NCBI GenBank assembly: GCA_900317365.1
Contig: ONGM01000143.1
Location: forward strand, 38,891 to 102,890
Direction of reading: 5' to 3'
Length of the DNA: 64,000 nt
From: an uncultured Planctomycetota bacterium
GTDB taxonomy: Bacteria > Planctomycetota > Planctomycetia > Pirellulales > Thermoguttaceae
A program made the position numbers and the translations under genes. Numbering within the stretch: the first letter of the stretch is position 1; each line of letters opens with the position of its first letter. The notes beneath the pieces were generated by a model. That model ran no database searches. It saw only the letters and a program-made list of their open reading frames with translations, and was not told the DNA's origin. Of the stretch, positions 8,899-30,271 are shown in pieces.

Positions 8899-9624
8899 CT
8901 ACGCAAATCTTTTCGGACTCTCAAGTTTATGGAGGCTTCTCTTGTGCATTCGCTCGATTTGTCTTTGCGCATCGAGATCAACGTTCCCGCCCAGAATGAA
9001 CGAATCAAGCGTCGCGTAACTAACCCCCATCTCCTTCTCGTCAGTCTGCCCGTCGAATAATGCAGCGGAAGGCGCCTTGTCAAGAATGCGTTTCGGAGCG
9101 TCTAGAAAGCGAAGGAACTCGTAAACTTCGGTTACCGTCAGATCAGAGATCGGATTGAAATCGTATGCGCCGTCGCCCCACTTCGTAAAATATCCGACGT
9201 AGGCTTCGCTCCGATTGCCGGTTCCCGCGACAAGACAATTCTCGGAAGCGGCGATTGCGTACAAGGTCGTCATTCTCAGACGCGGAGCAATATTGGCGAC
9301 GGCGGCGGCGCTGAGTTGAACGTTTTTTTGAAGAGCTTCCAGTTCAGCGTTTTTTACAGGCGACAAATCGATCGTTCGCGTTTCGATTTCGTATTGTTGA
9401 GCAAGTTGAGCGGCGTCGCTGGCGTCTTCTTCGTAATTACGTCGGGAAGTACACGGCATGATAACGCCGATCGTCTTCTTGCATGCCGCCTTGGCAAGAA
9501 TCCCGACTAACGCGGAGTCTTTACCGCCACTGTTCCCAAAGACAACGCCGTCGGAGTCTGCTTGAGCGACTGTTTCACGTATAAAGCGAACGCGTTCGCT
9601 AAACTCCTTTTCATAATTTCGCAT
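8899..9624 (-). CDS. nadE: NH3-dependent NAD+ synthetase
   Basis: 241 aa with the PP-loop VFGNSGGKDSALV. The short form lacks a glutaminase domain. Confidence 0.85.
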   Translation of the reverse strand: MRNYEKEFSERVRFIRETVAQADSDGVVFGNSGGKDSALVGILAKAACKKTIGVIMPCTSRRNYEEDASDAAQLAQQYEIETRTIDLSPVKNAELEALQKNVQLSAAAVANIAPRLRMTTLYAIAASENCLVAGTGNRSEAYVGYFTKWGDGAYDFNPISDLTVTEVYEFLRFLDAPKRILDKAPSAALFDGQTDEKEMGVSYATLDSFILGGNVDLDAQRQIERMHKRSLHKLESPKRFA

Positions 9625-12600: not shown

Positions 12601-12833
12601 CAAATTCGCGCGAGGTATTCCAGCGTTAGCGGCTCCATGTAGACCTTATCCGCGACAGTCGTGTCCGTCATGATCGTCGCAGGGTTAGAGTTAACTAAAA
12701 CGACCTCGAAACCTTCTTCTTTGAGCGCCAAGCAAGCCTGCGTGCCTGCGTAATCAAATTCTGCCGCTTGACCGACGACAATGGGACCGGATCCGATAAC
12801 CAACGTCTTTTTGATATCTGTTCGCTTAGGCAT
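9654..12833 (-). CDS. carB: Carbamoyl-phosphate synthase large subunit
   Basis: [33 protein letters not shown] with duplicated ATP-grasp halves. I place the start at ATG 12833, which gives an 8-nt ATGCCTAA overlap with the carA stop, rather than at the track's 12953. Confidence 0.95.
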
Positions 12834-13920
12834 TTTCTTTACTCTCGGCCATGTAATGTGTGAAACGGCTGAAAAGATACAAACTGTCTTGCGGTCCCGG
12901 CGCGCTTTCTGGGTGATACTGAACGCTAAAAACGCGATCGTCGGAACATTCAACGCCTTCGACCGTGTTGTCGAGAAGGTTGATATGCGTAATCTTTAAA
13001 TTCGTGCATTCCAAGCTTTCTGCGTCGACTGCGTAACTGTGGTTTTGCGACGTTATTTCGATCCTATTCGTCAAGAGATTTTTAACCGGATGATTGCCGC
13101 CGCGATGTCCGAATTTCAACTTATACGTCTTGGCGCCGTATGCAAGAGATATGATTTGGTGCCCTAAACAAACTCCGAAGACAGGAACGGAACCTCGTAA
13201 ACGCTTGACTGTGTCCACGACTTCCGGCACGTCCGTCGGATCGCCAGGTCCGTTCGAAACGAATACGCCGTCGGGTCTCATAAAGAGAATCTCTTCGGCT
13301 GGCGTGTTATAAGGAACGATCACGACGTTACACGAAAATCTCTTTAGTGAACGAACGAGATTAAGTTTCATTCCACAATCGATCGCAACGACGTTAAAGA
13401 TAGGATCCGCAGTGCGAGAATAACGCTTTTTTTTGCAAGAGACTCGCGACACGGCGTCGTTAGGGATCGGCGTCGACTGAATGCGCGCCAGGGCGACGTC
13501 GAGCGGCGTGTCGACGCCCGTCATAATTGCTCGTCTTGATCCGTAATCGCGAATGCTTCTCGTTAGTCGCCTTGTGTCGACCCCCGTGATCCCAGGCGCG
13601 TTGCAATCCTCAAGAAGCTCGCTCAACGTTTTAACGGCGCGGAAGTTTGAAGGAGAATCGTTATAGTCCCCCACGATCATTCCGCCGATACTTGGATTGA
13701 CGCTCTCGAAATCGTCGTCGGTAATTCCATAATTACCGATGAGCGGATATGTCATCGTGACGAATTGATCCGTATACGACGGATCCGACGCAATCTCCTG
13801 ATATCCGACAGGAGAGGTGTTAAAAACGACTTCGCAAACACGTTCAACGCTTGCGCCAAAACCGTAACCGTAAAATTCTTTACCGTCTTCCAGCACCAAC
13901 TTTCGATCTTTTTTTCTCAT
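12826..13920 (-). CDS. carA: Carbamoyl-phosphate synthase small (glutaminase) subunit
   Basis: 364 aa with the class-I GATase motif VFGVCLGHQ and HRGGNHPV, ending [11 protein letters not shown]. Confidence 0.95.
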
Positions 13921-14007: not shown

Positions 14008-14691
14008 TTAATCTCGACGCATGGCTATAATGGTTTCCGCTATTTCCTTTTTGGTTACGCAACGATCCATCGCTTGCTTTTCAATATAACGGTGCGCTTC
14101 TCCTTCCGTCATTTTCAATTGCTCGACAAGAAGCAACTTCGCATGATTGATTATGCGAATTTCTTTCATTTTTTCCTCAACAGTAGCCGTCTTTTTCTCC
14201 AGCATACGCAGTCGTTCTCGAACGCCGCATAGAAACGAAAGGTGTTGAAGAACGACCTGTCCCGCCGTTGGCTTCGAGAGAACGCACACCCCTCGAGGAG
14301 TCGCTTTCGCGTTGACTTCGGCAAAGACTTCCTGATACACAAAGATCATTGCGCACGCTCCGTGCTCGTCGCAGACGTCGAAAGCGAATTCTACGCCAAA
14401 TTCGTCCGGCAAAGGCGCGTTTACAACGATAACGTCATAGCTTCTTTCAAGGAACTTCCTTTTAGCGTCCGCAGCGGTCGTTACAGTCGTCGGGCGATAC
14501 TTGGGTTTAGGAAGGATCATGACGAGCGAGTTTGCAAAAGCGGCGCTCGCCGACACAATGAGAATCGAATAAGAACGGTCGAGATAAAAATCGTCGTCTC
14601 GACGTTTCGCCCTTCTTCCTCCTAATACGCCGTCGATTCCTCCGCGCGAAGATCGGCGCTCATGAGTTGTGCTGAAACCTTGCGATTCCAT
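14008..14691 (-). CDS. ANTAR-domain RNA-binding antiterminator with N-terminal pseudo-receiver
   Basis: The C-terminus IRIINHAKLLLVEQLKMTEGEAHRYIEKQAMDRCVTKKEIAETII fits ANTAR. The receiver-like part has ILIVSASA in place of the DD pocket and VIVVNAPLP in place of the phospho-Asp, while LSKP is retained. Confidence 0.8.
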   Translation of the reverse strand: MESQGFSTTHERRSSRGGIDGVLGGRRAKRRDDDFYLDRSYSILIVSASAAFANSLVMILPKPKYRPTTVTTAADAKRKFLERSYDVIVVNAPLPDEFGVEFAFDVCDEHGACAMIFVYQEVFAEVNAKATPRGVCVLSKPTAGQVVLQHLSFLCGVRERLRMLEKKTATVEEKMKEIRIINHAKLLLVEQLKMTEGEAHRYIEKQAMDRCVTKKEIAETIIAMRRD

Positions 14692-14721: not shown

Positions 14722-15945
14722 TTATTCTTCGTCGGCAAGCGCAATGTAGTGGTTCGCGATTTGTTGTGGTATTTTTTCGTTAATTAAGGAACTGCTTTTA
14801 GTTGCTTCGGCGGCTTCGCGAAGGGACAACGGCACGCGCTCTTCGACAATGCGTTCAGACTCTTGATTCGCGCCGGGCTCAATCGGAAGCGGCGGTTGTA
14901 CTTCGTTGTCGATCCCGTCGAGAGCCGACCAAATAAGCAACGCGTTCGCCAAATACGGATTGCAGGTAGAATCAGGAGTTCCGAGTTCTACCGTCTTTCG
15001 ATCGGCGCCGTCGTTTGAGAGACGAACGATCTGTTCGCAACTCTCGCGAGACCATGCGACTTTTTTGGGCACGTTGCTTTCTCTCAATCTTTGATACGAA
15101 TTCGCCGTCGGATTAAAAAAGAGCGTCATTGCGCAAATATTCTTCAAAAGACCGCCAATTGCGTAACGCCAATACTCGTTATTGTTACCGTTATTCTGTT
15201 GGATGCGAAATTTCAATCTCATCGCGTTTCCAGGTTGATTCGCCATTGGCAGAGGGGAAAAATCTGCGAAAAGTCCGTGCGCCGCAGCGATCGTATTAAC
15301 GACAAAGCGAAACGTTACCGCCGCGTCCGCCGCCGCGAGAGGATCTAGCGAACAAAAATCTATTTCATTCTGTCCCGGTCCAACCTCGTGGTGAGAACTC
15401 ACCGGTTTGACTCCCATTTGCTCGAGACTCAGACATATTTCTCGGCGAATGTTTTCACCTTTGTCGTCAGGTGACACGTCCATATATCCTGCGGAGTCGA
15501 AAGGTTCCCGCGTTGGTAAGCCGTTCTCGTCGCGACGGAAAAGATAGAATTCCATTTCGGAACTAATAGCAAAGGAAACGCCCTTAGATTCAGCTTCTTG
15601 AATCGCTCGAATTAAAACCGACCGCGAATCGGACTCAAAAGACGTTCCGTCGGGATAAGAGATCGAGCAAAACATTCGAATAACTCTTCCCCGTTCCGGA
15701 CGCCACGGTAAGACCGCGATCGTCGACGTGTCCGGACGGAGTAAAAGATCAGAGTTTGCGCGCGTTTCAAACCCGCGAATTGCCGAAGATTTAATTGGAA
15801 CGCCGCACTCGAACGCATTTCGCAATTCGTCCGACATGATCGACGTATTCTTCTTGCGACCAAAAACGTCCGTAAACGCGAGACGAATGAATTTAACGTC
15901 TTCTTCGGCTACGTACTGCTCAATTTCATTGATTGTATATTTCAT
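14722..15945 (-). CDS. Glutamine synthetase type-I-like protein, divergent and possibly non-catalytic
   Basis: The GS N-terminus (VKFIRLAFTDVFG), EMEFYLF, HHEVGPGQNEIDF and NPTANSYQRL are present. However, GSGMHxHxSL is replaced by GNAMRLKFRI and E-V-R-x-PD by E-L-G-T-PD. I prefer the start at ATG 15945 over TTG 15966. Confidence 0.8.
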   Translation of the reverse strand: MKYTINEIEQYVAEEDVKFIRLAFTDVFGRKKNTSIMSDELRNAFECGVPIKSSAIRGFETRANSDLLLRPDTSTIAVLPWRPERGRVIRMFCSISYPDGTSFESDSRSVLIRAIQEAESKGVSFAISSEMEFYLFRRDENGLPTREPFDSAGYMDVSPDDKGENIRREICLSLEQMGVKPVSSHHEVGPGQNEIDFCSLDPLAAADAAVTFRFVVNTIAAAHGLFADFSPLPMANQPGNAMRLKFRIQQNNGNNNEYWRYAIGGLLKNICAMTLFFNPTANSYQRLRESNVPKKVAWSRESCEQIVRLSNDGADRKTVELGTPDSTCNPYLANALLIWSALDGIDNEVQPPLPIEPGANQESERIVEERVPLSLREAAEATKSSSLINEKIPQQIANHYIALADEE

Positions 15946-15998
15946 TTGCGTCTTTCTATCTTCCAACGATCAATCATCTCGTGATCGTAGACAAAGCG

Positions 15999-16721
15999 TC
16001 AGTTCGCGACGTACATTTGCTTATAAGGATTAGCGACGTTCGGCGTGACCAGAGTAAAAGGTTCGTCAATAATCTTGGCAAAATCGTATCCAAACGTTTC
16101 ACAGAACTTTGCGATCAATGGACGAATTTCAGCCAAGTCTTCAGGATTTGCTATTTTTACCGTTGTTTGCTCGGGAAAAGAAACGGTTCCGAGCCCGCCT
16201 CGAACGAAAAGCTTTCCGCCGTGCATACCCGCGCATGGGAACGCTCCTAACGTTTCCTTGTCGTCCTTATGCAGACCAAGAGCTACGATCAGTCCACCCG
16301 CCTGATATTCTCCTAAAAAGCTACCGACACGTCCGCCGATGACGATCGCAGGCTTTTTCTCTTTGTATTCCTTCATATGGATGCCGACGCGATAGCCGGC
16401 GTTTCCTTGAACGAGTATTATTCCACCGCGCATCGCGTATCCGACCGCGTCGCCAACATTTCCATGAATCACAATCAAGCCGTCGTTCATCGTGTCTCCG
16501 ACCGCGTCTTGCGCGTTCCCTTCTACGATGATTTCCGAGCCGGCAAGGTAAGCGCCGAGCGCGTTGCCCGGAACGCCGGAAATCACAATTCGCTTGCCGC
16601 GAGATCCCGACGCGATGAAACGTTGTCCGAGACACTCGACGATTTTCAGTTCGTCGCCCGACTGATAAATCTCGTCGTTCAAAACGTCAAAACTCTTATT
16701 TTTGGCTTCTATCACTCTCAC
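15999..16721 (-). CDS. Glutamate synthase GXGXG-domain subunit (GltB C-terminal domain homolog)
   Basis: Repeated G-x-G beta-helix motifs (ISGVPGNALGAYLAG, VEGNAQDAVGDTMNDG, IHGNVGDAVGYAMRGG, VQGNAGYRVG). I prefer the start at GTG 16721, 5 nt after a GGAGG, over the track's TTG 16769. Confidence 0.8.
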   Translation of the reverse strand: MRVIEAKNKSFDVLNDEIYQSGDELKIVECLGQRFIASGSRGKRIVISGVPGNALGAYLAGSEIIVEGNAQDAVGDTMNDGLIVIHGNVGDAVGYAMRGGIILVQGNAGYRVGIHMKEYKEKKPAIVIGGRVGSFLGEYQAGGLIVALGLHKDDKETLGAFPCAGMHGGKLFVRGGLGTVSFPEQTTVKIANPEDLAEIRPLIAKFCETFGYDFAKIIDEPFTLVTPNVANPYKQMYVAN

Positions 16722-16790
16722 TTTTGCCTCCGAACGTCGATGAATGCACACCTGTTGCGTTGCGATCAAACCAAGGAACAGAACTGCTCG

Positions 16791-18296
16791 TTACTCGCCT
16801 GCGTGTTTAATTCCTAAAATGTCCAATTCCTTTTCGGTCATACCGATACCTCGCAACATCAACCGATTTCCTCGAAGCGTTTCTATGGAGTTAATTCCCA
16901 TGCCGCCCATGAGTTCTTTAATTTCATGGCGCCACGCGGACAGAAGATTTACAAGTCTTCTGGCGCCGACGTTAGGATCAAGTCTTTGAACAAGTTCCGG
17001 TCGTTGAGTGGCGATTCCCCAATTGCATCGACCCGTCTGACATGAACGACATAGTCGACATCCCAACGCGATCAACGCAGCCGTGGCGATATAACATGCG
17101 TCCGCGCCCAATGCAATCGCTTTAACGACGTCGGCCGCGTTACGAATACTCCCGCCGACAACGAGGGAAACGTTGTTTCGTATACCTTCCGCACGAAGTC
17201 GTTCGTCTACCGCAGCGAGCGCTAGTTCGACGGGAATTCCAACGTTGTCGCGAATACGCGTCGGCGCCGCGCCTGTTCCACCTCGAAAACCGTCGATCGC
17301 GATAATATCCGCGCCGCTACGCGCCACTCCGCTAGCGATCGCGGCAATGTTATGTACCGCTGCAACTTTAACGATGATCGGCTTAGTGCGCCTGGTCGCT
17401 TCTTTCAGAGAGTAGACCAATTGGCGGAGATCCTCGATCGAATACACGTCGTGATGCGGCGCCGGCGAAATGGCGTCGACTCCTTCTGGGATCATTCTCG
17501 TTCTCGACACGTCGCCTACAATTTTGGCGCCCGGTAAGTGCCCGCCGACTCCCGGCTTTGCTCCCTGCCCCATCTTGATCTCGATCGCCGCTCCTGCGTT
17601 GAGATAATCCTCGTGAACGCCAAAGCGCCCGGAAGCGACCTGCACGATCGTATTTGCGCCGTATCGATAGAAGTCCTCATGAAGACCGCCTTCACCGGTA
17701 TTATAGAAGACCCCGAGTTCCTGAGCCGCGCGCGCTAAACTTTCATGCGCGTTGTAACTGATCGAGCCGTAGCTCATCGCCGAAAACATGACCGGCGTCT
17801 CCAGGACAAGTTGCGGCTCCATCGACACGTCCAACGAGCCGTCCGAAGCCCGACGAATTTGCTCAGGCTTTTTGCCCAGAAAAACGCGCGTTTCCATTGG
17901 TTCGCGCAGTGGATCAATCGAGGGGTTGGTTACCTGCGACGCGTTGATCAGTATTCGATCCCAATAGACCGGAGTCGGTTTAGGCGCCCCCATCGACGAG
18001 AGCAAAACCGCGCCGGTATTCGATTGTTTGACGATCTCGCTGATCAAATCGGCGGACCAATTGGCATTCTCTTTGAACGAATTCTCATTCTTGACGATTT
18101 TGAGCGCGCGCGTCGGACACATCGCGACGCAACGCTGACAGTCGACGCATTTGCTTTCGTCGACGACAAGCTTTCGCGAGCGCTCGTCAATTCGATGAAC
18201 TCCATTGGCGCATTCGCGAACGCATAAATTACACGACACGCACCGTTCGAGATTTCTTACAACGTCAAACTCAGAGGAAAGGTACTGGACGGACAT
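16791..18296 (-). CDS. Glutamate synthase FMN/Fe-S subunit with N-terminal 2x[4Fe-4S] ferredoxin domain (archaeal type)
   Basis: CVSCNLCVRECA and CVDCQRCVAMCP, then GEGG, KMGQGAKPGVGGHLPG and the GGTGAAP FMN-domain motifs. Its ATG shares one base with the upstream stop (TAATG). Confidence 0.85.
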   Translation of the reverse strand: MSVQYLSSEFDVVRNLERCVSCNLCVRECANGVHRIDERSRKLVVDESKCVDCQRCVAMCPTRALKIVKNENSFKENANWSADLISEIVKQSNTGAVLLSSMGAPKPTPVYWDRILINASQVTNPSIDPLREPMETRVFLGKKPEQIRRASDGSLDVSMEPQLVLETPVMFSAMSYGSISYNAHESLARAAQELGVFYNTGEGGLHEDFYRYGANTIVQVASGRFGVHEDYLNAGAAIEIKMGQGAKPGVGGHLPGAKIVGDVSRTRMIPEGVDAISPAPHHDVYSIEDLRQLVYSLKEATRRTKPIIVKVAAVHNIAAIASGVARSGADIIAIDGFRGGTGAAPTRIRDNVGIPVELALAAVDERLRAEGIRNNVSLVVGGSIRNAADVVKAIALGADACYIATAALIALGCRLCRSCQTGRCNWGIATQRPELVQRLDPNVGARRLVNLLSAWRHEIKELMGGMGINSIETLRGNRLMLRGIGMTEKELDILGIKHAGE

Positions 18297-19387
18297 TAGA
18301 GCGCTCCTTTCTGAACCTTGAAAATCACCGGTTCGCCCCCTGCCGGAGCATAGACCTTTTCGGCGTTTGGCGCCATGATTCGTATCGCGGCTTCTTCGCT
18401 TGCGACGTAACGCATGTCGTCCTTTTCCGCAACAACCATCGAGCGCAACTTCAGTCGATCGTTGAGCGCCATAAGTCCCCCGTCAAATCCTAAAACAATC
18501 GAAAAAGGCCCCGTTAAAAGGAGACTCGGAAAAACCTTGCGAAGGTAAGAAAGCTGCTCCGATTCTTTTTGCGGGAGACTGTCGACAACGCTCCAAAAGG
18601 GAGCGGCTATTACGGCCGCAGTCTCTTCGAGCGTCAGCTTTTGTCGACGCAAGAGGTAATCGGCAATATACGCGATGACTTCCGTGTCCGTCTGAAGCGA
18701 ACATTTGTATCCAAACATCTCGATAAACCGTCGATTGGCGTCGTAAGAGGAAATCTCCCCGTTATGTACAACAGTGTAATCGAGGATTCCAAACGGATGG
18801 GCGCCTCCCCACCATCCAGGCGTATTCGTGGGGTAACGTCCGTGCGCCGTCCAAGCGTATCCTGCGTATTCTTCCAATCGATAAAACCGTCCAACGTCTT
18901 CCGGAAACCCGACCGCCTTAAAGGCGCCCATGTTTTTCCCGCTAGAAAAAACGTACGAACCTTGAAATTGCGAATTGATTTTTATGACGGTTCGCGCGAC
19001 AAATTCTTTTTCATCGAGCTGAAGACGAGAAAGAACAGACTGCAACGGCGCGACAAAATAGCGCCATATTATCGGTACGTCGGTAATTTCAGGGATCTTG
19101 CGAATTGGTATCGGTTCCGACTTGACGATCTCGTAGCCTTCTTTGAGGTACTTTTCGCACTCTTTTTGCGCGGCGACGTCGTCAAAAAAAACATGAAAGG
19201 CGTAGAAGTCTTGAAAATCCGGATAAATCCCATACCCTGCGAATCCGCCCCCGAGACCGTTGGATCTGTCGCGCATGGGAACCATACTCTTGGTAATGGC
19301 CTCGCCTGTTGTCGCCGCGCCCTTGAGCGAAATCATCGCTGAAATCGCGCATCCTGAAGGAATACGAACCTGTCCTTCCCTTTGCAT
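18296..19387 (-). CDS. Class-II (Ntn) glutamine amidotransferase subunit of split glutamate synthase
   Basis: 363 aa containing RIPSGCAIS..., HGRYPTNTPG and VHNGEISSY. The catalytic Cys is residue 13. Confidence 0.85.
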   Translation of the reverse strand: MQREGQVRIPSGCAISAMISLKGAATTGEAITKSMVPMRDRSNGLGGGFAGYGIYPDFQDFYAFHVFFDDVAAQKECEKYLKEGYEIVKSEPIPIRKIPEITDVPIIWRYFVAPLQSVLSRLQLDEKEFVARTVIKINSQFQGSYVFSSGKNMGAFKAVGFPEDVGRFYRLEEYAGYAWTAHGRYPTNTPGWWGGAHPFGILDYTVVHNGEISSYDANRRFIEMFGYKCSLQTDTEVIAYIADYLLRRQKLTLEETAAVIAAPFWSVVDSLPQKESEQLSYLRKVFPSLLLTGPFSIVLGFDGGLMALNDRLKLRSMVVAEKDDMRYVASEEAAIRIMAPNAEKVYAPAGGEPVIFKVQKGAL

Positions 19388-19413: not shown

Positions 19414-19467
19414 AAAAAAAAAAGCGCCCACTCGCGGAAGTACTCTACGTGCTTCGCGAATGAACGC
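19414..19467 (-). terminator. Leader (attenuator) terminator of the glutamate-synthase operon
   Basis: Minus-strand RNA reads GCGUUCAUUCGCGAAG-cacguagagua-CUUCCGCGAGUGGGCGC followed by U10. That gives 16 bp including 3 GU pairs and one bulged C. It ends 26 nt before the ATG at 19387. Confidence 0.7.
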
Positions 19468-19477
19468 CTTTGCTCAT
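19460..19477 (-). promoter_or_regulatory. Hexaloop hairpin (candidate ANTAR-binding antiterminator element)
   Basis: AUGAGC-AAAGGC-GUUCAU is a 6-bp stem with a 6-nt loop carrying A at position 1 and G at position 4. Its 3' arm is part of the terminator's 5' arm, so the two structures are mutually exclusive. Confidence 0.5.
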
Positions 19478-19574
19478 CGGTGAAACATTTTAGCGCCTCT
19501 TTCGAAAACGTCAAGGAAAAAGAATGAAAAAATTTAAGAAAAGGTAATCTTTTAACAGACGTTTCAACAGATTT

Positions 19575-21390: not shown

Positions 21391-21436
21391 AAAACCCGCC
21401 CGCAGACGACAAGCCCTGGAAATCGTCGCGGGCGGG
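21391..21436 (-). terminator. GC-rich hairpin plus UUUU between amt-PII and asnB (terminator or partial terminator)
   Basis: Minus strand: CCCGCCCGCGACGA-13 nt-UCGUC(U)GCGGGCGGG followed by UUUUA. Confidence 0.5.
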
Positions 21437-21490
21437 CGCCAGACACGCGCGTCTGGCTTATTTCATTGGCGGACAGTTTTCCGTGTTTGA

Positions 21491-23236
21491 TTACGCTTCC
21501 TCGTCTTGCAACGCGTCGTAACCTTCCTCGCCTGTCCTCACTTTGATCGCGTTTTCAACGTCGTAGACGAAGATCTTGCCGTCTCCGATTCTGCCGGTGT
21601 ACAATGTCTTTTTAACCGTGTCGATTAGATCGCTCACAGGTATCTTGCTAATAACGACGTCAACTTGAACCTTTGGTAAAAGATTCGTTTCAACTTGTAC
21701 CCCGCGGTAATACTCCGGGCGTCCGCGTTGAACGCCGCAGCCTAAAACGTGCGAGACGGTCATTCCGGTAACGCCGAGCGCCGACAAAGCCTCTTTCAAC
21801 GCGTCGAACCTTGATTCTTTGCATATAATCTCGACCTTCGTGAGTTTCCGCGTTCCCTGACTAGTAGTCGTTGCAAAGATTGGTTCACGTTTAACAGGGA
21901 TAGCCTCGGCAACGGGAACGTCGCCTTGAACTACCTGAACGCCGCCGATCGGCGCAAAATCGGAGAACCGATTGACTGCCGGTGCAAAATCAGGATACGC
22001 CGACGGAAGTCCGTGTTCAGTCTTGTCCAAACCGAGAATCTCATCTTCAGCGTTGACGCGCATTCCGACTGTAAGATCAATCAGCTTGAAGGCAATACAA
22101 AGGACGACGAGGGCGTAGGCGGCAACGCTAGCAATGCCGAGGCATTGAATCTTTAACGCTGAGAGGTCGCCGGTGTAAAAAAGACCAGAAATTCCAGCCG
22201 GCGCGTCGGGATTAGCAAAAAGTCCAACCGCAAACGTTCCCCAAACGCCGCACGCTAGATGAACGCCAACGGCGCCGACCGGATCGTCAATGTGAAATCT
22301 CAGATCGAGCTTTTCGACGATGAAGACGACGAGAAAACCTGCGACAATTCCGATAATGATCGAACCGATCGCGTCAACCGCGTCGCAACCTGCCGTAATT
22401 CCAACCAAGCCGGCGAGAGACGCGTTTAGGCACATCGAAACGTCGGGTTTGCCGTTTTTCACCCAGGTATAAACCAGCGCGGCGCACGTAGCGAACGCAG
22501 GAGCTAGGGTTGTTGTGAGAAAGATTGCGGAGAGTTCGGACGCAGACGTTGCCGCCGCGCCGTTAAAGCCGTACCATCCTAGCCACAAAATGAACACTCC
22601 CAACGCGCCAAGCGTGATTGAATGTCCAGGAATCGCGTTGATCTTTGAAACCTTTCCGCGATCGTCGCGACGATATTTCCCAATTCGCGCTCCGAGCAGG
22701 ATCGCGCCGATCAGAGCGGCGAATCCGCCGACCATGTGAATCGCGCAAGAACCGGCGTAATCGTGAAAACCTCGTTGCGCAAGCCAACCGCCGCCCCAAA
22801 TCCAATGCGCCTCGATAGGATAAACGAGGAGCGAAAGAATGATCGAATACAAACAGTAGGCTGAGAATTTCGTTCGTTCAGCCATGGCGCCGGACGCGAT
22901 CGTTGCGGTCGTTGCACAGAAGACAAGGTTGAAGACGAACGTCGAAGCCGGAGTGAACTCGTCGGCGGAAGGATTCGTTATGAACAATTTGAAATTGGTG
23001 AAAATCTCGAAATTTGGTCTTCCAATCAGCCCGAAAAAAGAATCGGCGCCAATGAGAAGAGAGTATCCAAGCGTGGAAAACGCCACCGCGCCTAGACAAA
23101 AATCCATGAGATTCTTCATGACGATATTACCGGCGTTCTTCGAACGAGTAAATCCGGCTTCAACCATCGCGAATCCCGCTTGCATCCAAAAGACTAACGC
23201 CGCGCCAATTAAAAACCAAAACTCAACGGTAATCAC
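21491..23236 (-). CDS. Ammonium transporter (Amt) fused to a C-terminal P-II (GlnK/GlnB) domain
   Basis: The Amt core has FWMQAGFAMVEAGF, AIHMVGGFAAL and VHLACGVWG. The last ~118 aa (21494..21847) are KVEIICKESRFDALKEALSALGVTGMTVSHVLGCGVQRGRPEYYRG...GDGKIFVYDVENAIKVRTGEEG, which is P-II. The start is probably GTG 23236, 7 nt after an AGGAG that overlaps the glnN stop; the track's TTG 23242 is too close to the RBS. Confidence 0.9.
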   Translation of the reverse strand: MITVEFWFLIGAALVFWMQAGFAMVEAGFTRSKNAGNIVMKNLMDFCLGAVAFSTLGYSLLIGADSFFGLIGRPNFEIFTNFKLFITNPSADEFTPASTFVFNLVFCATTATIASGAMAERTKFSAYCLYSIILSLLVYPIEAHWIWGGGWLAQRGFHDYAGSCAIHMVGGFAALIGAILLGARIGKYRRDDRGKVSKINAIPGHSITLGALGVFILWLGWYGFNGAAATSASELSAIFLTTTLAPAFATCAALVYTWVKNGKPDVSMCLNASLAGLVGITAGCDAVDAIGSIIIGIVAGFLVVFIVEKLDLRFHIDDPVGAVGVHLACGVWGTFAVGLFANPDAPAGISGLFYTGDLSALKIQCLGIASVAAYALVVLCIAFKLIDLTVGMRVNAEDEILGLDKTEHGLPSAYPDFAPAVNRFSDFAPIGGVQVVQGDVPVAEAIPVKREPIFATTTSQGTRKLTKVEIICKESRFDALKEALSALGVTGMTVSHVLGCGVQRGRPEYYRGVQVETNLLPKVQVDVVISKIPVSDLIDTVKKTLYTGRIGDGKIFVYDVENAIKVRTGEEGYDALQDEEA

Positions 23237-23247
23237 GACCAATCTCC

Positions 23248-25344
23248 TTATCGAACGCTAAACAGGATCTTTTCATAGGTCGGGAACGGCCAATATTTTT
23301 CAGCGACGAGTGTTTCCGCTTCGTCGCACACTAGGCGCAACTCCGTCATTCGCGGCAAGATCTCGTCGCGAATCATAACGGACGCCTCGGTAACGTCGCC
23401 AATCGTTTTGAGTTGTACGAGCGATACGTCTAGTCTCTGGGTCGCGGCGTCAATTTCGTCAACGATACGTGAAAGCTTTGCGAGGAGGTTCTTTTCATAC
23501 CGTCCTGATACTTCCGGCGCAATGGCGTTTTTGGCGACGGCCGTTTCCGCAATGTCTTTAACATAGGATTCGACGGCCGGCAAAATATCCTTGCGCGCCA
23601 TATCCACCATCGTTAAGCCTTCGATCGTTACCGTCTTGCAGTAATTGTCCAACGTGATTTCGTATCGGGATCTAATCTCAGAAACAGAATAAATCCCGAG
23701 AGAGACGAGCAAATCGACGTTCTTTTTATTGAGAAGGGCCGGCAGAGCGTCCGGAGTCGTGCGGAGATTGAGAAGCCCGCGCTCTTCCGTCGCCTCTTTA
23801 ATCCATGCGTCGTCGTATCCGTTGCCGTTGAATACGACTCGACGATGGTCTTTGAACGTCTTTTTAATCATCTCGTGAAGCGCCGTCTCAAAATCGGTTG
23901 CGTTTTCCAAACGATCGGCGTAAATCTTGAGGGACTCGGCGACTGCGGCATTCAGCATGATATTGGCGCACGCAATGCTGTTTGAAGAGCCGAGCATACG
24001 GAATTCAAACTTATTGCCGGTAAAGGCAAAAGGAGACGTCCTGTTGCGATCCGTCGAATCGCGATTGAAATTCGGCAATACGTTAGCGCCCAGTTTCATA
24101 ACCGTCTTTTCCGCGCCGACGTAAGGAGCGTCGTTTACGATCGCGTCCATAATGGCGGTCAGTTCGTCCCCGAGGAAAATCGAAATCACCGCAGGAGGGG
24201 CTTCGTTCGCGCCAAGTCGATGGTCGTTGCCCGCCGTCGCTACCGATAGTCGAAGAAGATCTTGATAGTCGTCCACCGCCTTAATTACGGCGCAGAGGAA
24301 AAGGAGGAACTGCGCGTTCTCGTACGGCGTTTCACCAGGAGTCAAAAGGTTGACGCCTGTGTCCGTAGCCATCGACCAGTTGTTGTGCTTACCGGAACCG
24401 TTGACGCCTGCAAAAGGCTTTTCATGCAACAAGCAGACGAGACCGTGCCGAGAGGCAACCTTCTGCATGATCTCCATCGTTAATTGGTTGTGATCCGTGG
24501 CAACGTTCGTCGTCGTATATATCGGAGCGAGCTCGTGCTGAGCCGGCGCCACTTCGTTGTGTTCCGTTTTAGCGAGGATCCCAAGTTTCCACAACTCTTC
24601 GTTGAGGTCCGCCATATAGGCGGCGACGCGCGGCTTAATGACGCCGAAGTAATGATCCGACATTTCCTGCCCTTTCGGCGGTTTTGCGCCGAAGAGGGTT
24701 CGACCGGTCATGATCAAGTCTTTGCGTTCAAGAAAAACCTTTTCGTCGATCAGAAAATACTCTTGTTCCGGACCAACCGAAGTGCGAACGCATTTGACGT
24801 CCGTTTTGCCAAAGAGTTTTAAGATCCGCAACGCCTGAACGTTGAGCGCTTCCATCGATCGAAGGAGTGGCGTCTTTTTGTCCAACGCTTCGCCGCCGAA
24901 GGAACAGAACGCCGTCGGAATGCACAGCGTTTTTCCCTTAATGAACGCGTACGACGTCGGATCCCACGCCGTGTATCCCCGCGCTTCAAAGGTCGCGCGC
25001 AAACCGCCAGACGGAAAAGACGACGCGTCCGGTTCGCCTTTAATGAGCTCCTTACCGGAAAACTCCATAATGACGCGTCCGTCAGGGGACGGCGTAATAA
25101 AGCTGTCGTGTTTCTCGGCAGTTACGCCGGTAAGGGGCTGGAACCAGTGTGTAAAATGCGTCGCGCCGCGAGCAACCGCCCAATCCTTCATTGCAGCCGC
25201 CACCGCGTCGGCGACCCCGCGATCAAGGGGAGCGCCTTCGTCAATCGTTTTTTTCAGCGAGCGATAAACGTCGTCGGAAAGGGACGCCTTCATGACGCGG
25301 TCGTCGAACACCATAGAACCGAAATACTCGGGAACAGAACTCAT
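23248..25344 (-). CDS. glnN: Glutamine synthetase type III
   Basis: 698 aa. The N-terminus [20 protein letters not shown], plus [11 protein letters not shown] and GSGKHNNWS, are characteristic of GSIII. Confidence 0.9.
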
Positions 25345-25364: not shown

Positions 25365-25407
25365 AAAAAAAGGCAACGACGTTTTGGAAAACCAAGACGC
25401 CGTTGCC
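25365..25407 (-). terminator. glnN leader terminator 2
   Basis: GGCAACGGCGU-c-UUGG-uuuu-CCAA-a-ACGUCGUUGCC followed by U7. It has 15 bp and ends about 20 nt before the ATG at 25344. Confidence 0.65.
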
Positions 25408-25410
25408 TCG
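25393..25410 (-). promoter_or_regulatory. Hexaloop hairpin H2 overlapping terminator 2
   Basis: CGAGGC-AACGGC-GUCUUG has a 6-bp stem (2 GU pairs) and a loop with A1/G4. It shares nucleotides with the 5' arm of terminator 2. Confidence 0.45.
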
Positions 25411-25420
25411 TTTTATCGAT

Positions 25421-25469
25421 AAACAAAAAAGGGGTCTCAGAAAAGAATTTTCATCTTTTCCGAGACCCC
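25421..25469 (-). terminator. glnN leader terminator 1
   Basis: GGGGUCUCGGAAAAG-9 nt-CUUUUCUGAGACCCC forms 15 bp and is followed by UUUUUUGUUU. Confidence 0.7.
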
Positions 25470-25478
25470 TTTGCCTCA
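25461..25478 (-). promoter_or_regulatory. Hexaloop hairpin H1 overlapping terminator 1
   Basis: UGAGGC-AAAGGG-GUCUCG has a loop with A1/G4. Its loop and 3' arm form the 5' arm of terminator 1. Confidence 0.45.
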
Positions 25479-25942: not shown

Positions 25943-28900
25943 TTATTTGCGATCGCGGCGGATTTGATAGTCTCCCCAGAGCGGAACGTTTAGATCAATC
26001 CAACATTTGATCGCCTGCTCTTCTTCGGGGCTTAAATTGACGCCGTCGTGTTGCGCCTCTTTAAGAACGTCGAATAGTCGACTCTTGGCGACGCCAAAGG
26101 TATACGGCGCGGCCTTCGTCGTTTTTCCGCCGCCCCATGTGTAGTCAAAGTAATGAATCGTTCCGCTTTGAATTAACGAGCGATATGAGTTCGGGATCTT
26201 GTTCGCGTCACGGTCGCCGGTCAAATCGATAATTCGTGAAGCTAGCGCCGCCGTATCGGCGTTATGACACTCGACGCAATGTTTGTTCAGAATCGGTTGA
26301 ACGATTCGTTCATACCAAAACGGGCCGGCTCCCCACGGCGGCGCGACCAGCCGTTGCGGATCGCCTGCCGACGCCTTCGTAAGTCCGCCTTCCGGGGCGC
26401 TCAATCGATTTTCATGACATCCTACGCACGAACGCCGTTCGCCAGGTCGGAGTTGGACGACGGAGCGCATGCGTTGAATCTCATTGTAATTCTCGTCCAA
26501 CAGTTCGAAAAAGAGAACTTTTTCCGCCGGAACGAGAAAATCGACGGAGCCGTCTTCTTCAATTTCTACCGTGCCGAGAACGCCTTTCGCAACGTACGAG
26601 GGCCACCCGTAGGCGCCTTGTAGAACGTCGACGGGCGAAGCGTAGTACTCCATGAAGGGTTCGTGATCGGCTTGATAGGTTCCGTCGTCGAGTTGAATGA
26701 GATTCGTCGGAAGCTCTTGGCACACGCGCAAGTACTTTGCGGCGCCCGGTTTGACCTGACCCTCTAGCCCTCGATAGACGTTGGCGACGGAAAAATAGCC
26801 AAGTTTCTGATCAGCAAGGGTCGGATCCGCCGAAGCGCCTGTGACCGGCGGCGTCTCGCGCGGCGCGAAAGGTTGGGGACAAATCGTGTCGATTTCGGGA
26901 TCAATCGTCAGTAACTCTCGATTGCCAAAGCGATCGATTAAGTAAACTCCAAATCGATCAAAATGTGCGTGCGAGACGAGAATAATATCCCTCGAAATAG
27001 GAGTCGGTTCGCGAAACGTTTCCGAGCGCGCCCAGTAGCCGGGCCAAGGGACCTCCGGCGTAATCGACCGAATAGCCGACGGATCGTGCGGTCCTTTCGA
27101 CAGATCGATCAGGGCAACCGGTCCGTTGAGGTCGCCAAAGTGTGAAATCATAACGCAACAGACTTCATTGGAATCGGGAACGCGTTTACCGTTCGCGTAA
27201 CCTTGCGGCAAGTTAATCGTGTTTCCAAATGTCAGCTCAGGCGACGTCCCGTCCGCGCGAATAGTCCACAACGTGTGCCCGTAATCCGCTCCTTTATCGA
27301 CGTATTCCGAACGCGTCCACATAATTCTCCCGTCGTCGCACACCGACGGCGCAAACTCGGAAAGATTGGCGTAGGAAAGAGGTTCCAAGCCCGTTCCGTC
27401 CATATCCATTCGATGAAGAACAAAAGCTTGCGGACGCCAACAGATGAATTTTTTCTTACATCTCGTCGATACGAACGCAAGACCTCCGTCGGGAAGTTCC
27501 GTAGGCCAAAAATCATGGAACGGTCCAGGCGGGCTTATGCGTCGCTCGACGCCGGAAGTCAGATCGAGTTCGAAGATGCGATAGTACTCGTTTTGACTGA
27601 TTCGTTTTGCATAGTAAATCTTTTGTGCATCAAAGCTTTGCGACGGATTTCTAATAACGCCGTCCCCTGCCTCGACAAGATTTCGAGCGGTTGCTTCTTC
27701 CGGGGCAAGCCGACCGTCTTTAAACGGTATGTCGATCATAACGACGGCGCCGCCGGGATTCCAGGTTGAATCAAAGAGGTCGCTATAGTTGTGCGACGGC
27801 CAAAATGGATTTCGCTTGTTGGCGAGAATGTGAGAAAGGGATTCTAATTCCGGATTGGAGAGGAAGAGATCGCGTTTTAAGAGTCTCACGCGTAGGAAAA
27901 GATTACGCGTCGCCAGTAGACTTTCACGGCGGCGCTGAGAATCTTCGTCGCGCGCTGAGTTTTTCAATGAGTCAAGGAAAAGTTGCCAACACGCAAGAGC
28001 TTCAGTCTCGACAGAAGAAAGCTCCGGACGCTTTTGAAGGTCGTTGAAATACTCAATCAGAGCTTCTGCTTCGCCTTGGTCTCCCAATTTAGCCAGAATT
28101 GCTTTTGAATCGACATATCTCGGATTAACGCTCCCGTTCCACCGAACCTGTTTTGCGAAGTCACGTTCGTCAAGCTCGGTCGAACGACTTTCGGAACGCT
28201 CGAGCATATCTTTGAGTTGACATAACGGACGATACGACGGGTTGTATTTCAATCCAACAACGCGAAATTTATCCCCAGACTTTTGATCAACGATCGAACA
28301 GACAAGTTCAGGACCGGCGTAGCCCCACTCTCCCTGAACCTTTGTAATCGTAGTTTTTCCCGGCTGAACGGAGACGTCTTCCGCATTGATCGAGAAAACG
28401 CGATCCTCGTCGGAAGTTCCGACAAGACGTATTTCGAAATCCGCTGAAAAATCATTCGGAGGAGCGAGTTCAAGCGCAAAAGGCGCAGGCTTAAAATGGA
28501 CAGGTCTCCCGCCTGGCATGACGCGTCGCGCGCCTATGCCTAACCCTACGTAAAATCCACGTTCTTTTACGTCAGGCAGAAATTGTAAGGGAATTTTCAC
28601 CTGAAGAGTGTTGGCGTCAGGATTAAAGCAACCGTCGAGTTCCGTTTCGGAGCCGGCGTCCCGTTCGTCGAGCGGATCGATCTGTTTCCAAAGAACTTTC
28701 GTTTCAACCTTTCCCTCACAAACGTCGTCGCGAAGCGTAATGAATGCGCGATCAGGTATGTTTTCAGTCCCGATCATCGCGATATTTTCGGAGAGAAACC
28801 GATCGCCTGAAATTCTAAGCAAAAGCGCGTCTGGCGTAAAAACTGCGCTCACGGTTTGCTCCAGAAGCCCCCCCAAGAAGAAGGAGCCGCCGTTAAAGAC

Positions 28901-29818
28901 GCGTTCTGTTCCCGAAGACGAACTGAGCCATAGCTCCGTGTTATCAGCCGAAGGGTCAAACGTCGGAACATCTTTGATCGAAGGAACAGGGAGAACGTTT
29001 TCCGGCTTACGCTGGGGTTCCACAAACTCTGGATAATGACGCTGAAGAAGCCATGGTTCAATATCGGCAAAACCGGCGACCTTTAAAACGGCGTTCTCTT
29101 CCCCTAAAAACGCGTCTTGGAGCGCGAGTTCGTAAGCGGAAAACGCTTCGTTGGAAAGGGACTCAGGCGGAATAATTGAACGCAGTTTGGCGGCGCCGAT
29201 CGGAGCATTGGCAATCCAAGGCGAACCATAAGAGACAAGTTGATTCCCGTCGATCGTCGCCGAAGTTCCGCGAACTTTTGCAAGGCTATTCCAGTTTTCG
29301 CCGTTGATAGAAGCAAAAATCTCGACTGCGAGCGGCATGCGGTCGGAATAAGTTCCTTCTCTATCGCGCGAATAAACGACCTTCACGACTTCAACCGGCT
29401 CGTCCCATTCGTACAAGAGCCATTGGGGATTATCGCGCGACGGGATATCGGCGGCGACCCAAGCGGAAGAATTGCCAAACTTACCGTCGTTGATATTTTC
29501 AATCTTGTGAATTTCATACCCGGAAATACACGACGATGCGGCGACTTGTTTAACGTGCTTTCGCGCGAGATTCTGAGAATTGTCCTCGCCAAAAACAAGT
29601 AACTCGTCGATCGCAGGCGCGCCCGACTGTGAACTGTAGATTGCGAATTTGAGAAAACGAACGGAGGTTTTTTCAAATGCAATTTCGTTCTCTTTCTCCG
29701 CGAAAACCTGTCTAAACGTCGTTTCTTCCGCAAAGCACGCGAGCGCGAAGATAAGCGGGAAAAGAATTCCAAAGGCGCGGACAGCGATCGCGTAAATTAC
29801 ATCCAGTTGATTTTTCAT
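25943..29818 (-). CDS. Large secreted multidomain protein: N-terminal discoidin-like modules, beta-propeller-like middle, two C-terminal CxxCH motifs
   Basis: 1291 aa counted from ATG 29818, with the signal-like AIAVRAFGILFPLIFALACFAEE. IENINDGKFGNSSAWVAAD..WLLYEWDEPVEV looks like an F5/8-type-C domain. The repetitive region DGG..F.S / DG..MWTRSEY / WTIRADG resembles a TolB/PD40 propeller. CVGCH lies at 26414..26428 and CVECH at 26264..26278. Confidence 0.7.
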   Translation of the reverse strand: MKNQLDVIYAIAVRAFGILFPLIFALACFAEETTFRQVFAEKENEIAFEKTSVRFLKFAIYSSQSGAPAIDELLVFGEDNSQNLARKHVKQVAASSCISGYEIHKIENINDGKFGNSSAWVAADIPSRDNPQWLLYEWDEPVEVVKVVYSRDREGTYSDRMPLAVEIFASINGENWNSLAKVRGTSATIDGNQLVSYGSPWIANAPIGAAKLRSIIPPESLSNEAFSAYELALQDAFLGEENAVLKVAGFADIEPWLLQRHYPEFVEPQRKPENVLPVPSIKDVPTFDPSADNTELWLSSSSGTERVFNGGSFFLGGLLEQTVSAVFTPDALLLRISGDRFLSENIAMIGTENIPDRAFITLRDDVCEGKVETKVLWKQIDPLDERDAGSETELDGCFNPDANTLQVKIPLQFLPDVKERGFYVGLGIGARRVMPGGRPVHFKPAPFALELAPPNDFSADFEIRLVGTSDEDRVFSINAEDVSVQPGKTTITKVQGEWGYAGPELVCSIVDQKSGDKFRVVGLKYNPSYRPLCQLKDMLERSESRSTELDERDFAKQVRWNGSVNPRYVDSKAILAKLGDQGEAEALIEYFNDLQKRPELSSVETEALACWQLFLDSLKNSARDEDSQRRRESLLATRNLFLRVRLLKRDLFLSNPELESLSHILANKRNPFWPSHNYSDLFDSTWNPGGAVVMIDIPFKDGRLAPEEATARNLVEAGDGVIRNPSQSFDAQKIYYAKRISQNEYYRIFELDLTSGVERRISPPGPFHDFWPTELPDGGLAFVSTRCKKKFICWRPQAFVLHRMDMDGTGLEPLSYANLSEFAPSVCDDGRIMWTRSEYVDKGADYGHTLWTIRADGTSPELTFGNTINLPQGYANGKRVPDSNEVCCVMISHFGDLNGPVALIDLSKGPHDPSAIRSITPEVPWPGYWARSETFREPTPISRDIILVSHAHFDRFGVYLIDRFGNRELLTIDPEIDTICPQPFAPRETPPVTGASADPTLADQKLGYFSVANVYRGLEGQVKPGAAKYLRVCQELPTNLIQLDDGTYQADHEPFMEYYASPVDVLQGAYGWPSYVAKGVLGTVEIEEDGSVDFLVPAEKVLFFELLDENYNEIQRMRSVVQLRPGERRSCVGCHENRLSAPEGGLTKASAGDPQRLVAPPWGAGPFWYERIVQPILNKHCVECHNADTAALASRIIDLTGDRDANKIPNSYRSLIQSGTIHYFDYTWGGGKTTKAAPYTFGVAKSRLFDVLKEAQHDGVNLSPEEEQAIKCWIDLNVPLWGDYQIRRDRK

Positions 29819-30271
29819 AACCGGTTCATCGTCCTTTCTGCATCTTGGAAAACGCACTCTCTCGCTGGCAAACTACGCGCGCAATTCAAATCTGATATTC
29901 GGCGTTCATGGCGTCATTGTAATCGGTCGCGCTAGGAATTTAAAGCATAGAGAAAAGAATTTCTCTATTTGTGGTCGGAGTCTTCACGATATCGGGTTCG
30001 CGCCATGTGCACGACGTGGAGGTTCTCGGGACGCTCTACGAAGAATTCGCGAGCGTGGCCTTCAATTTCAAGCCATTCTACTCTGAATCGCCCGTTTTTC
30101 ATTCTTAGCAAAACCTTTGAAAAGTTCACAAAGCTAAGCGACAGCCAAGACCGCTACAAACAGGAAAGATCGTCTAAGATAGAGTCGTCTAGAATGAGAA
30201 AGATGTGCCGAAATGATCATAGGCGACTCGAAAGCAACCAAAGCAAATTGCATTGCAAGGTCGAAAGCGAC

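Follow-up and report, generated by a model that had tools for sequence, protein, structure and literature searches.

A 64,000-nucleotide stretch of contig ONGM01000143.1 from an uncultured planctomycete of the Thermoguttaceae (the window; positions 38,891 to 102,890 of the forward strand) encodes a 407-residue protein that is predicted to have the fold of a type I-alpha glutamine synthetase (GS-I-alpha) and is substituted at several catalytic positions. A gene for an antiterminator of the ANTAR class starts 30 nucleotides beyond its stop codon, the spacing given in the original prediction on this DNA. We propose that this antiterminator is controlled by the GS-like protein, acting as its ligand-sensing partner, a reading to which we assign a probability of about 0.55. 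The proposal draws on a pattern of four parts, namely the universal pairing of GS-like and ANTAR genes, a regulator that is apparently non-phosphorylatable, a single-hairpin attenuator at nitrogen-assimilation genes, and repeated catalytic loss. The original prediction had suggested a pseudoenzyme or sensor, with catalysis perhaps dispensable given a type III glutamine synthetase encoded nearby, and this is supported by the residue losses, the predicted intact fold, a low score against the GlnA family model, purifying selection and the link to the ANTAR gene.

Fold, active site and maintenance of the GS-like protein

The GS-like open reading frame (ORF) is of full length and has good start signals, with an in-frame TTG 21 nucleotides upstream of the ATG that makes the mechanical ORF reach position 15966. 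Both Pfam domains of glutamine synthetase (GS) were found in the 407-residue protein (Gln-synt_N, 74 bits; Gln-synt_C, 234 bits), and the nearest solved structures are the GS-I-alpha entries 8tfb, 8s59 and 8ufj from M. mazei and 4lnf from B. subtilis (HMMER, E ~1e-84). An AlphaFold2 model built on 20 relatives reached a predicted local distance difference test (pLDDT) score of 84.8 and a predicted template modelling (pTM) score of 0.90, and Foldseek comparisons of this model with GS from M. mazei, B. subtilis and P. polymyxa gave template modelling (TM) scores of 0.92-0.94. As modelled, the GS-I-alpha fold of the protein is intact. The score against the NCBIfam GlnA equivalog TIGR00653 was 272.3 bits and thus below the cut-off of 429.15. 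Relative to GS-I-alpha, the C-terminus is truncated by about 20 residues, the alignment stops 24 residues before the end of 8tfb, and positions 329-344 of the Gln-synt_C profile have no match.

Active-site residues, numbered as in S. typhimurium GS, were mapped by HMMER alignment to the GS-I-alpha structures. The n2 metal ligand H269 is replaced by Arg, residue 243 of the protein, with the other n2 ligands E129 and E357 retained and all three n1 ligands (E131, E212 and E220) present as Glu. Two arginines acting in phosphoryl transfer and at the gamma-glutamyl phosphate are replaced (R339 by Cys, R359 by Gly), and R344 and R321 are kept. These three substitutions had been called in the original prediction, which relied on an alignment by eye, and the motifs it quoted (SSEMEFYLF, SSHHEVGPGQNEIDF, FNPTANSYQRL, CNPYLA, GNAMRLKFRI, SCEQIVRLS and TVELGTPD) were all found. 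A further reported change, H271 to Lys, was right as to the Lys and wrong as to the original residue, since GS-I-alpha already has Asn at this position (N271 to Lys). We found additional changes beyond that list: D50, which deprotonates ammonium, is Lys; the E327 flap position is Asn, accompanied by a one-residue deletion; S273 is Arg and G267 is Ala. Y179, H210, H211 and G265 are also retained. Profile alignment and structure prediction, both named as checks in the original prediction, thus found catalytic ligands missing and the fold kept.

Among 119 relatives, 167 alignment columns are at least 95% conserved, and the GS-like protein keeps 140 of them (84%). The losses are concentrated in the active site (8/20 columns, versus 19/147 elsewhere; Fisher p = 0.0056), and most of the 19 other losses fall within the same active-site loops, residues 288-326. 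The degeneration is targeted, not random. On the basis of these substitutions, the catalytic activity of the protein has probably been lost.

The gene is real and under purifying selection. No fewer than 13 contigs, drawn from seven or more independent assemblies and sharing one gene order, encode the identical protein or one of two variants that differ from it at one or two residues; the locus is also contained in at least 20 metagenome runs of bovine, sheep and rumen origin, collected in 12 studies. The GS-like haplotypes carry six segregating sites, of which five are synonymous and one is non-synonymous (binomial p ~0.003 with 77% of sites non-synonymous, a simple hand calculation); GSIII, the type III GS of the window, has 10 synonymous and no non-synonymous sites, and the genes for glutamate synthase (GOGAT) are comparable. 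A frameshift or assembly artefact was ruled out, since the allele recurs across many independent assemblies. In addition, two short contigs in one sheep-gut metatranscriptome match the locus, one of them weakly linking the GXGXG and GS-like genes by spanning their junction; these contigs indicate that RNA or DNA is present and are uninformative on attenuation.

A family of short GS-I-like proteins paired with ANTAR genes

A protein database search returned thousands of relatives, of which the nearest 120 were used for family comparison, and a genome scan for loci encoding family members provided the best 80 loci. The nearest 120 relatives are about 402 residues long, share 51-58% identity with the GS-like protein and carry the annotation 'glutamine synthetase family protein'. 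The family as a whole is characterized by the replacement of N264 by Pro, an 11-12-residue deletion after the GxxMH motif and a C-terminus about 20 residues shorter than in GS-I-alpha. The absence of some 25 C-terminal residues, noted in the original prediction as a feature of this gene, is thus real at about 20 residues and belongs to the family. The equivalent of Arg62 is gone family-wide (Gly or Asp; Thr in the window protein), and the flap E327 position is Lys in 118/120 members, Asn in the window protein and Ala in its sister, L011. D50, H269, S273, R339 and R359 are kept in 117-119 of the 120, and the window protein is thus a further-degenerated member. It has a mean identity to the family of 51.6%, compared with 65.4% among the others, and forms the longest terminal branch in a neighbour-joining (NJ) tree (0.24), making it the fastest-evolving member. 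L011, the closest relative, comes from a rumen metagenome-assembled genome (MAG) labelled planctomycete and carries H269R, N271T, S273A and the flap Ala, with D50, R339 and R359 kept. Since H269R is common to both, decay of the site began before the two lineages split and went on in the window lineage, with both genes intact. The nearest relatives, L007 and L011, are MAGs labelled Planctomycetia or planctomycete, and almost all other members are found in Clostridia, a distribution that points to horizontal transfer of the module or to bins with the wrong label.

Other lineages of the family have changed independently (E129K/A, E131K, E212K/A, D50N together with H210Q and E212K, D50A, and R359C). 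A wider sample comprised 127 GS-length representatives of the 50%-identity clusters nearest to the window protein. In more than 100 of these, one or more canonical residues are missing, and in many the number missing is five or higher; the motif alignments are unambiguous. The representative search is poor for setting the limits of the family, its top matches including multi-repeat giants: two predicted proteins of 4424 and 2757 residues contain 12 and 6 GS-like stretches, respectively, and may be tandem GS-like repeats or artefacts of assembly or gene calling. Seven degenerate representatives were examined for their gene neighbourhood; six were informative (P0142, P0132, P0136, P0143, P0134 and P0137), the contig of P0159 being too short. 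An ANTAR gene lies directly 3' in five of the six, and in the exception, P0142, the contig ends within the next gene, which is unannotated. P0134 and P0137 stand for clusters of 1420 and 1360 sequences. Some of the degenerate representatives have GOGAT genes upstream, and others have carAB, pyrG/asnB or nadE nearby. Judged by these alignments, catalytic residues appear to have been lost repeatedly and independently across the ANTAR-linked family. Metal ligands are lost so often that a conserved job other than catalysis is possible, as a needed enzyme would not lose them so frequently.

The 227-residue protein encoded next to the GS-like gene contains an ANTAR domain (56.5 bits) and a receiver domain that remains sub-threshold at 22.6 bits (cut-off 30.2). 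Compared with the NtrC1 and Rv1626 receivers, its acidic pocket is changed from Asp-Asp to Ser-Ala and its phospho-acceptor Asp to Asn. These substitutions recur family-wide: 75/77 ANTAR partners have Asn at the phospho-acceptor position, and 75/77 have Ser in place of the first acidic Asp. Pseudo-receiver ANTAR proteins form the AmiR-type class, which is under the control of a sensor protein (PMC3369931). In 76 of the 80 loci the next ORF after the GS-like gene encodes an ANTAR protein, and the contigs of the remaining four end first. Split GOGAT genes are located upstream in about three quarters of the loci and are missing in about 20. As the ANTAR link is universal and GOGAT is absent from these 20 or so, the conserved core is the pair of GS-like and ANTAR genes, which in the window adjoin each other inside an operon preceded by an attenuator. 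The window ANTAR protein also has an Arg-rich N-terminal extension of about 33 residues (14593-14691), which the usual 194-residue family members lack; the ANTAR ORFs of L011 and L007 are extended as well, with dissimilar sequences.

Leader attenuators and neighbouring nitrogen genes

The operon of GOGAT, GS-like and ANTAR genes begins with a sigma-70-like promoter, in an arrangement found in most related loci, and with a leader attenuator (Table 1). The hairpin UGAGC-AAAGGC-GUUCA (19476..19461), an exact match to the UGAGCAAAGGCGUUCA consensus, lies about 10 nucleotides past the promoter, and its loop and 3' strand are reused as the 5' arm of an intrinsic terminator. Two further units stand in tandem before GSIII, and GSIII expression would thus need two successive antitermination events. 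The terminator of the GOGAT leader folds at -33.6 kcal/mol (z = -5.6; the small hairpin alone, -5.6 kcal/mol), and z values of the three terminators range from -5.6 to -6.9. Because the leaders alone fold as terminators, the default state should be termination. A degenerate-pattern scan of the window found three hairpin copies, versus 0.1 expected by chance. In characterized ANTAR substrates, A1 and G4 of the hexaloop are required for binding (PMC3369931). The window hexaloops carry both and are predicted ANTAR targets.

Table 1. Genes and regulatory elements of the window, in window coordinates
Feature	Position	Strand	Remarks
NH3-type NAD synthetase, nadE	8899..9624	-	
carB	9654..~12833	-	
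carA	12826..13920	-	downstream of ANTAR gene
ANTAR antiterminator, NitR-like, pseudo-receiver	14008..14691	-	227 aa; Shine-Dalgarno AGAGAGG
GS-I-alpha-like protein, catalytically degenerate	14722..15945	-	407 aa; ATG start
GOGAT GXGXG subunit	15999..16769	-	start probably further downstream, ~16721-16751
GOGAT FMN/Glu_synthase subunit	16791..18296	-	N-terminal 2x[4Fe-4S] domain
GOGAT glutamine amidotransferase subunit (GATase_2)	18296..19387	-	
Leader attenuator, GOGAT/GS-like/ANTAR operon	19414..19476	-	hexaloop hairpin and U10-tailed intrinsic terminator
Sigma-70-like promoter	19487..19514	-	TTGACG-16-TAAAAT
AmtB fused to C-terminal PII (GlnK) domain	21491..23242	-	583 aa; downstream of GSIII
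Bona fide type III GS (GSIII)	23248..25344	-	630 bits to B. fragilis 3o6x
GSIII leader attenuator 2	25365..25409	-	GAGGC-AACGGC-GUCUU overlapping terminator; -27.7 kcal/mol
GSIII leader attenuator 1	25422..25477	-	GAGGC-AAAGGG-GUCUC overlapping terminator; -32.9 kcal/mol

Across most of the 80 loci the 16-nucleotide element is nearly invariant, again placed after a promoter and overlapping a terminator, and it stands before the GOGAT genes or, where GOGAT is absent, before the GS-like gene. Counted on both strands of all loci, it was identified 5' of GSIII (52), GOGAT (43), the GS-like gene (17), asnB (4) and amtB (2). A variant hairpin, AAGGC-AAAGGC-GUCUU, with a terminator was found in nine loci 5' of gdhA, a class IV aminotransferase gene, purC, guaA and pyrG. 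Its presence at purC, guaA and pyrG extends the putative regulon to glutamine-consuming nucleotide biosynthesis. A search of the whole window against Rfam at gathering thresholds gave no match to a known RNA family; the attenuator is thus not a curated family. A second ANTAR-type hairpin was sought up- and downstream of the conserved one and none was found: the downstream stem-loop is variable and has no conserved loop, and the -10 box about 10 nucleotides upstream leaves no room for a first hairpin. The attenuator is likewise absent before carA and asnB in the window. A different, GC-rich hairpin, CCCGCCCGCGACGA...UCGUCUGCGGGCGGG followed by UUUU (21391-21460, minus strand), ends just before the likely asnB start and has no ANTAR-type loop; it is either the amtB-glnK terminator or a separate control element of asnB.

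GSIII was confirmed as the bona fide GS upstream that the original prediction had pointed to, with its catalytic motifs intact. It is likely the organism's working GS, under attenuators of the type found before GOGAT. The AmtB-PII fusion encoded downstream of it also occurs in the related loci L001 and L085. The split GOGAT consists of three genes (GATase_2, Fer4 plus Glu_synthase, and GXGXG) in the window (15999-19387, minus strand) and in L011. In most relatives there are five genes, Glu_synthase and GXGXG being separated by those for an additional 4Fe-4S protein and a Pyr_redox_2 flavoprotein (L001, 2982-7983). After the ANTAR gene, carA, carB and nadE follow on the same strand with no obvious terminator between, and these genes for enzymes that use glutamine or ammonia are possibly co-transcribed with the GS-like/ANTAR pair. 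The carAB linkage is also seen in L092, where carA overlaps the ANTAR gene. Elsewhere the window encodes a 1304-residue protein with an HZS_alpha domain (25943-29857) and rhamnosidases.

Proposed sensor mechanism and its alternatives

In the proposed mechanism, each nitrogen-assimilation unit (GSIII/AmtB-GlnK, GOGAT/GS-like/ANTAR, and perhaps carAB and nadE) would begin with a promoter followed within a few nucleotides by a small A..G.. hexaloop hairpin, the loop and 3' strand of which would double as the 5' arm of a strong terminator. By default the terminator would form and transcription would stop, while a free ANTAR dimer would bind and stabilize the small hairpin and so allow read-through. 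An ANTAR protein that cannot be phosphorylated would need to be controlled by a protein partner. The candidate partner is the GS-like protein, which is predicted to keep the GS fold together with E131, G265, R321 and Y179, the residues that we take to hold the amino-acid backbone of Glu or Gln. Under nitrogen excess, a ligand-bound oligomer of the GS-like protein would sequester ANTAR and lead to termination; under nitrogen limitation it would release ANTAR, resulting in read-through into GSIII/amtB-glnK and the GOGAT operon. With GSIII supplying catalysis in this lineage, the active site of the sensor could have decayed while its fold and partner function were kept. We infer the physical interaction of the two proteins, the nature of the ligand and the direction of control from this arrangement. 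As the presumed backbone residues are kept and G127, E207 and S273, which presumably bind ATP, are changed, an amino acid is a more plausible ligand than a nucleotide. The 2-oxoglutarate site of M. mazei GS was also considered as a retained ligand site and was dropped, since the residue that we take to be its R20 is Glu in the family.

We also put forward, more tentatively and at slightly less than even odds, a general form of this proposal. GS-I-derived proteins, many of them catalytically dead, may be the dedicated nitrogen-status receptors of pseudo-receiver (NitR-type) ANTAR antiterminators. They would thereby form a widespread protein-RNA switch that governs ammonium assimilation and glutamine-consuming biosynthesis, with GSIII, GOGAT, AmtB, GDH, AsnB, CarAB, PyrG, GuaA and PurC as targets, in gut Clostridia and in organisms that acquired the module.

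Several observations weigh against a sensor role. The adjacency of the two genes may reflect co-regulation only, complex formation and ligand binding being proposed from context, and most of the ~402-residue members keep all metal ligands, so the family may combine the roles of enzyme and regulator. The flap glutamate (Glu304 in B. subtilis) and Arg62, with which the GS of that species senses glutamine, are absent family-wide, and any sensing of glutamine must therefore work differently here. The changes at the presumed ATP-binding residues make an ATP-dependent signal unlikely. Each attenuator has one hexaloop hairpin, versus two in the characterized ANTAR substrate, and ANTAR could have another controller, such as the PII domain of the AmtB fusion. 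Finally, Clo1313_2031, the type I GS of C. thermocellum, is a candidate family member by gene order, with no C. thermocellum name among the clusters looked up.

A non-catalytic GS-like subunit might instead act on enzymes, as a scaffold or regulator of the split GOGAT or as a binder or inhibitor of GSIII. The location of the GS-like gene directly after GOGAT genes in about three quarters of the loci would fit such a function, GS oligomers are known to bind proteins (GlnK1, GlnR and TnrA), and a degenerate active site is compatible with any non-catalytic role. We nevertheless regard this as unlikely, because the GS-like/ANTAR pair occurs without adjacent GOGAT in about 20 loci and in the degenerate representatives P0143, P0134 and P0137, and because no other conserved neighbour could serve as the protein partner that a pseudo-receiver ANTAR requires.

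Even less probable is that the gene is a former GS paralogue in decay, redundant through GSIII and undisrupted yet functionless. Its long branch, low mean identity and many losses at invariant positions are what decay would produce, but the full-length ORF with its start signals, the 140 of 167 conserved positions that are kept and the 5:1 ratio of synonymous to non-synonymous polymorphisms are not. Moreover, the H269R loss is old, being shared with L011, and both genes are still intact, and undamaged genes for far more degenerate relatives remain abundant. The least probable alternative is an enzyme with altered chemistry, such as the ligation of a gamma-glutamyl group to another amine or a metal-independent or single-metal reaction. 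GS-like paralogues with changed D50 and E327 are known as gamma-glutamyl-polyamine or gamma-glutamyl-ethanolamide synthetases, the protein gives a sub-threshold match to the NCBIfam model of gamma-glutamylputrescine synthetase (180 vs 650 bits), and the acidic cluster of E129, E131, E212, E220 and E357 is retained. Known gamma-glutamyl ligases, however, keep the metal ligands and the arginines for ATP and the acyl phosphate, whereas H269, R339, R359 and S273 are lost here; the surrounding operon points to regulation and assimilation, not to catabolism, and relatives lose different and even more essential residues.

Relation to known regulatory systems

If the GS-like protein is the sensor of ANTAR, the window gene would be a natural separation-of-function allele, with regulation retained and catalysis gone, and a pseudoenzyme derived from a metabolic enzyme would join the short list of ANTAR sensor partners. 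Thousands of database entries named 'glutamine synthetase' would then probably be non-enzymes, which would affect metabolic reconstructions of the rumen and the human gut. Deletion of the type I GS in C. thermocellum reportedly 'deregulates nitrogen metabolism', as the title of a 2017 paper by Rydzak et al. has it, and nitrogen-assimilation genes are said to have risen in that work despite high glutamine. A sensor role would account for this deregulation, since such a rise is expected when a negative regulator of the antiterminator is lost, and would bear on the engineering of biofuel strains. The proposed role, derived here from sequence comparisons, is of interest both for nitrogen regulation and for pseudoenzyme research.

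Antiterminators of the NitR type have been known since the 1990s. NitR induces GS and GOGAT genes by antitermination under nitrogen limitation, by sensing that is 'not fully understood' (PMC6316151). The pattern described here offers a testable answer for clostridia and many dominant gut anaerobes, namely that the adjacent GS-like protein is the sensor. The adjacency of glnA and nitR, nitrogen control by ANTAR proteins, pairs of a sensor with a pseudo-receiver ANTAR, and GS as a partner of transcription factors are all known already. A full-text literature search identified no description of a GS-derived, often dead protein as the cognate partner of an ANTAR regulator, of the single-hairpin attenuator consensus or of recurrent loss of catalytic residues, and no role of GS as the partner of NitR was found in the literature searched.

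The closest parallels in gene order are glnA-nitR of Clostridium saccharobutylicum and C. acetobutylicum and the C. thermocellum cluster of Clo1313_2030 (receiver-ANTAR), 2031 (type I GS) and 2032-2036 (five GOGAT genes) (PMC4676874, PMC9888227). In these, as in the window, a type I GS gene adjoins an ANTAR gene and is linked to GOGAT; their GS is treated as a working enzyme, whereas the window protein lacks catalytic residues. Compared with canonical GS-I-alpha, the window family is about 40 residues shorter and lacks the flap Glu and Arg62.

The regulatory logic resembles that of AmiC-AmiR of Pseudomonas aeruginosa and NasS-NasT of Paracoccus denitrificans, where a separately encoded ligand-binding protein sequesters a non-phosphorylated, receiver-like ANTAR protein, which in turn acts on a hairpin in the leader that overlaps with a terminator (PMC3369931, PMC3795266). 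The sensor and ANTAR genes are adjacent in these systems and lie inside the operon that they regulate, as in amiEBCRS. AmiC and NasS differ in having periplasmic-binding-protein folds and in binding amides or nitrate/nitrite, while the candidate sensor of the window has a predicted GS fold and its signal would be the nitrogen status of the cell. The interaction of sensor and ANTAR is also proposed here from the gene arrangement, unlike that of AmiC-AmiR and NasS-NasT. At the RNA level, the window units share with the eut substrate of EutV (Ramesh et al. 2012) a short stem, a hexaloop with A1 and G4, an overlap with the 5' base of a terminator and a location at nitrogen-metabolism genes. The eut substrate has two tandem hairpins (P1 and P2), whereas each window unit has a single hairpin, with the loop AAAGGC almost invariant.

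Finally, GS-I-alpha itself reports glutamine to a regulator in Bacilli, where GS and regulator genes share an operon and the tail of GlnR or TnrA binds Gln-bound GS at its E flap, D50 loop, Arg62, Arg316 and C-terminal helices alpha14-15 (PMC9249791). GlnR and TnrA are MerR-type DNA-binding regulators that depend on an active GS reading Gln via Glu304 and Arg62; the window system instead has an RNA-binding ANTAR regulator, with Asn at the equivalent of Glu304 (Lys in the family) and Thr at that of Arg62. The GS elements that contact GlnR or TnrA in Bacilli are those that are remodelled in the ANTAR-linked family.

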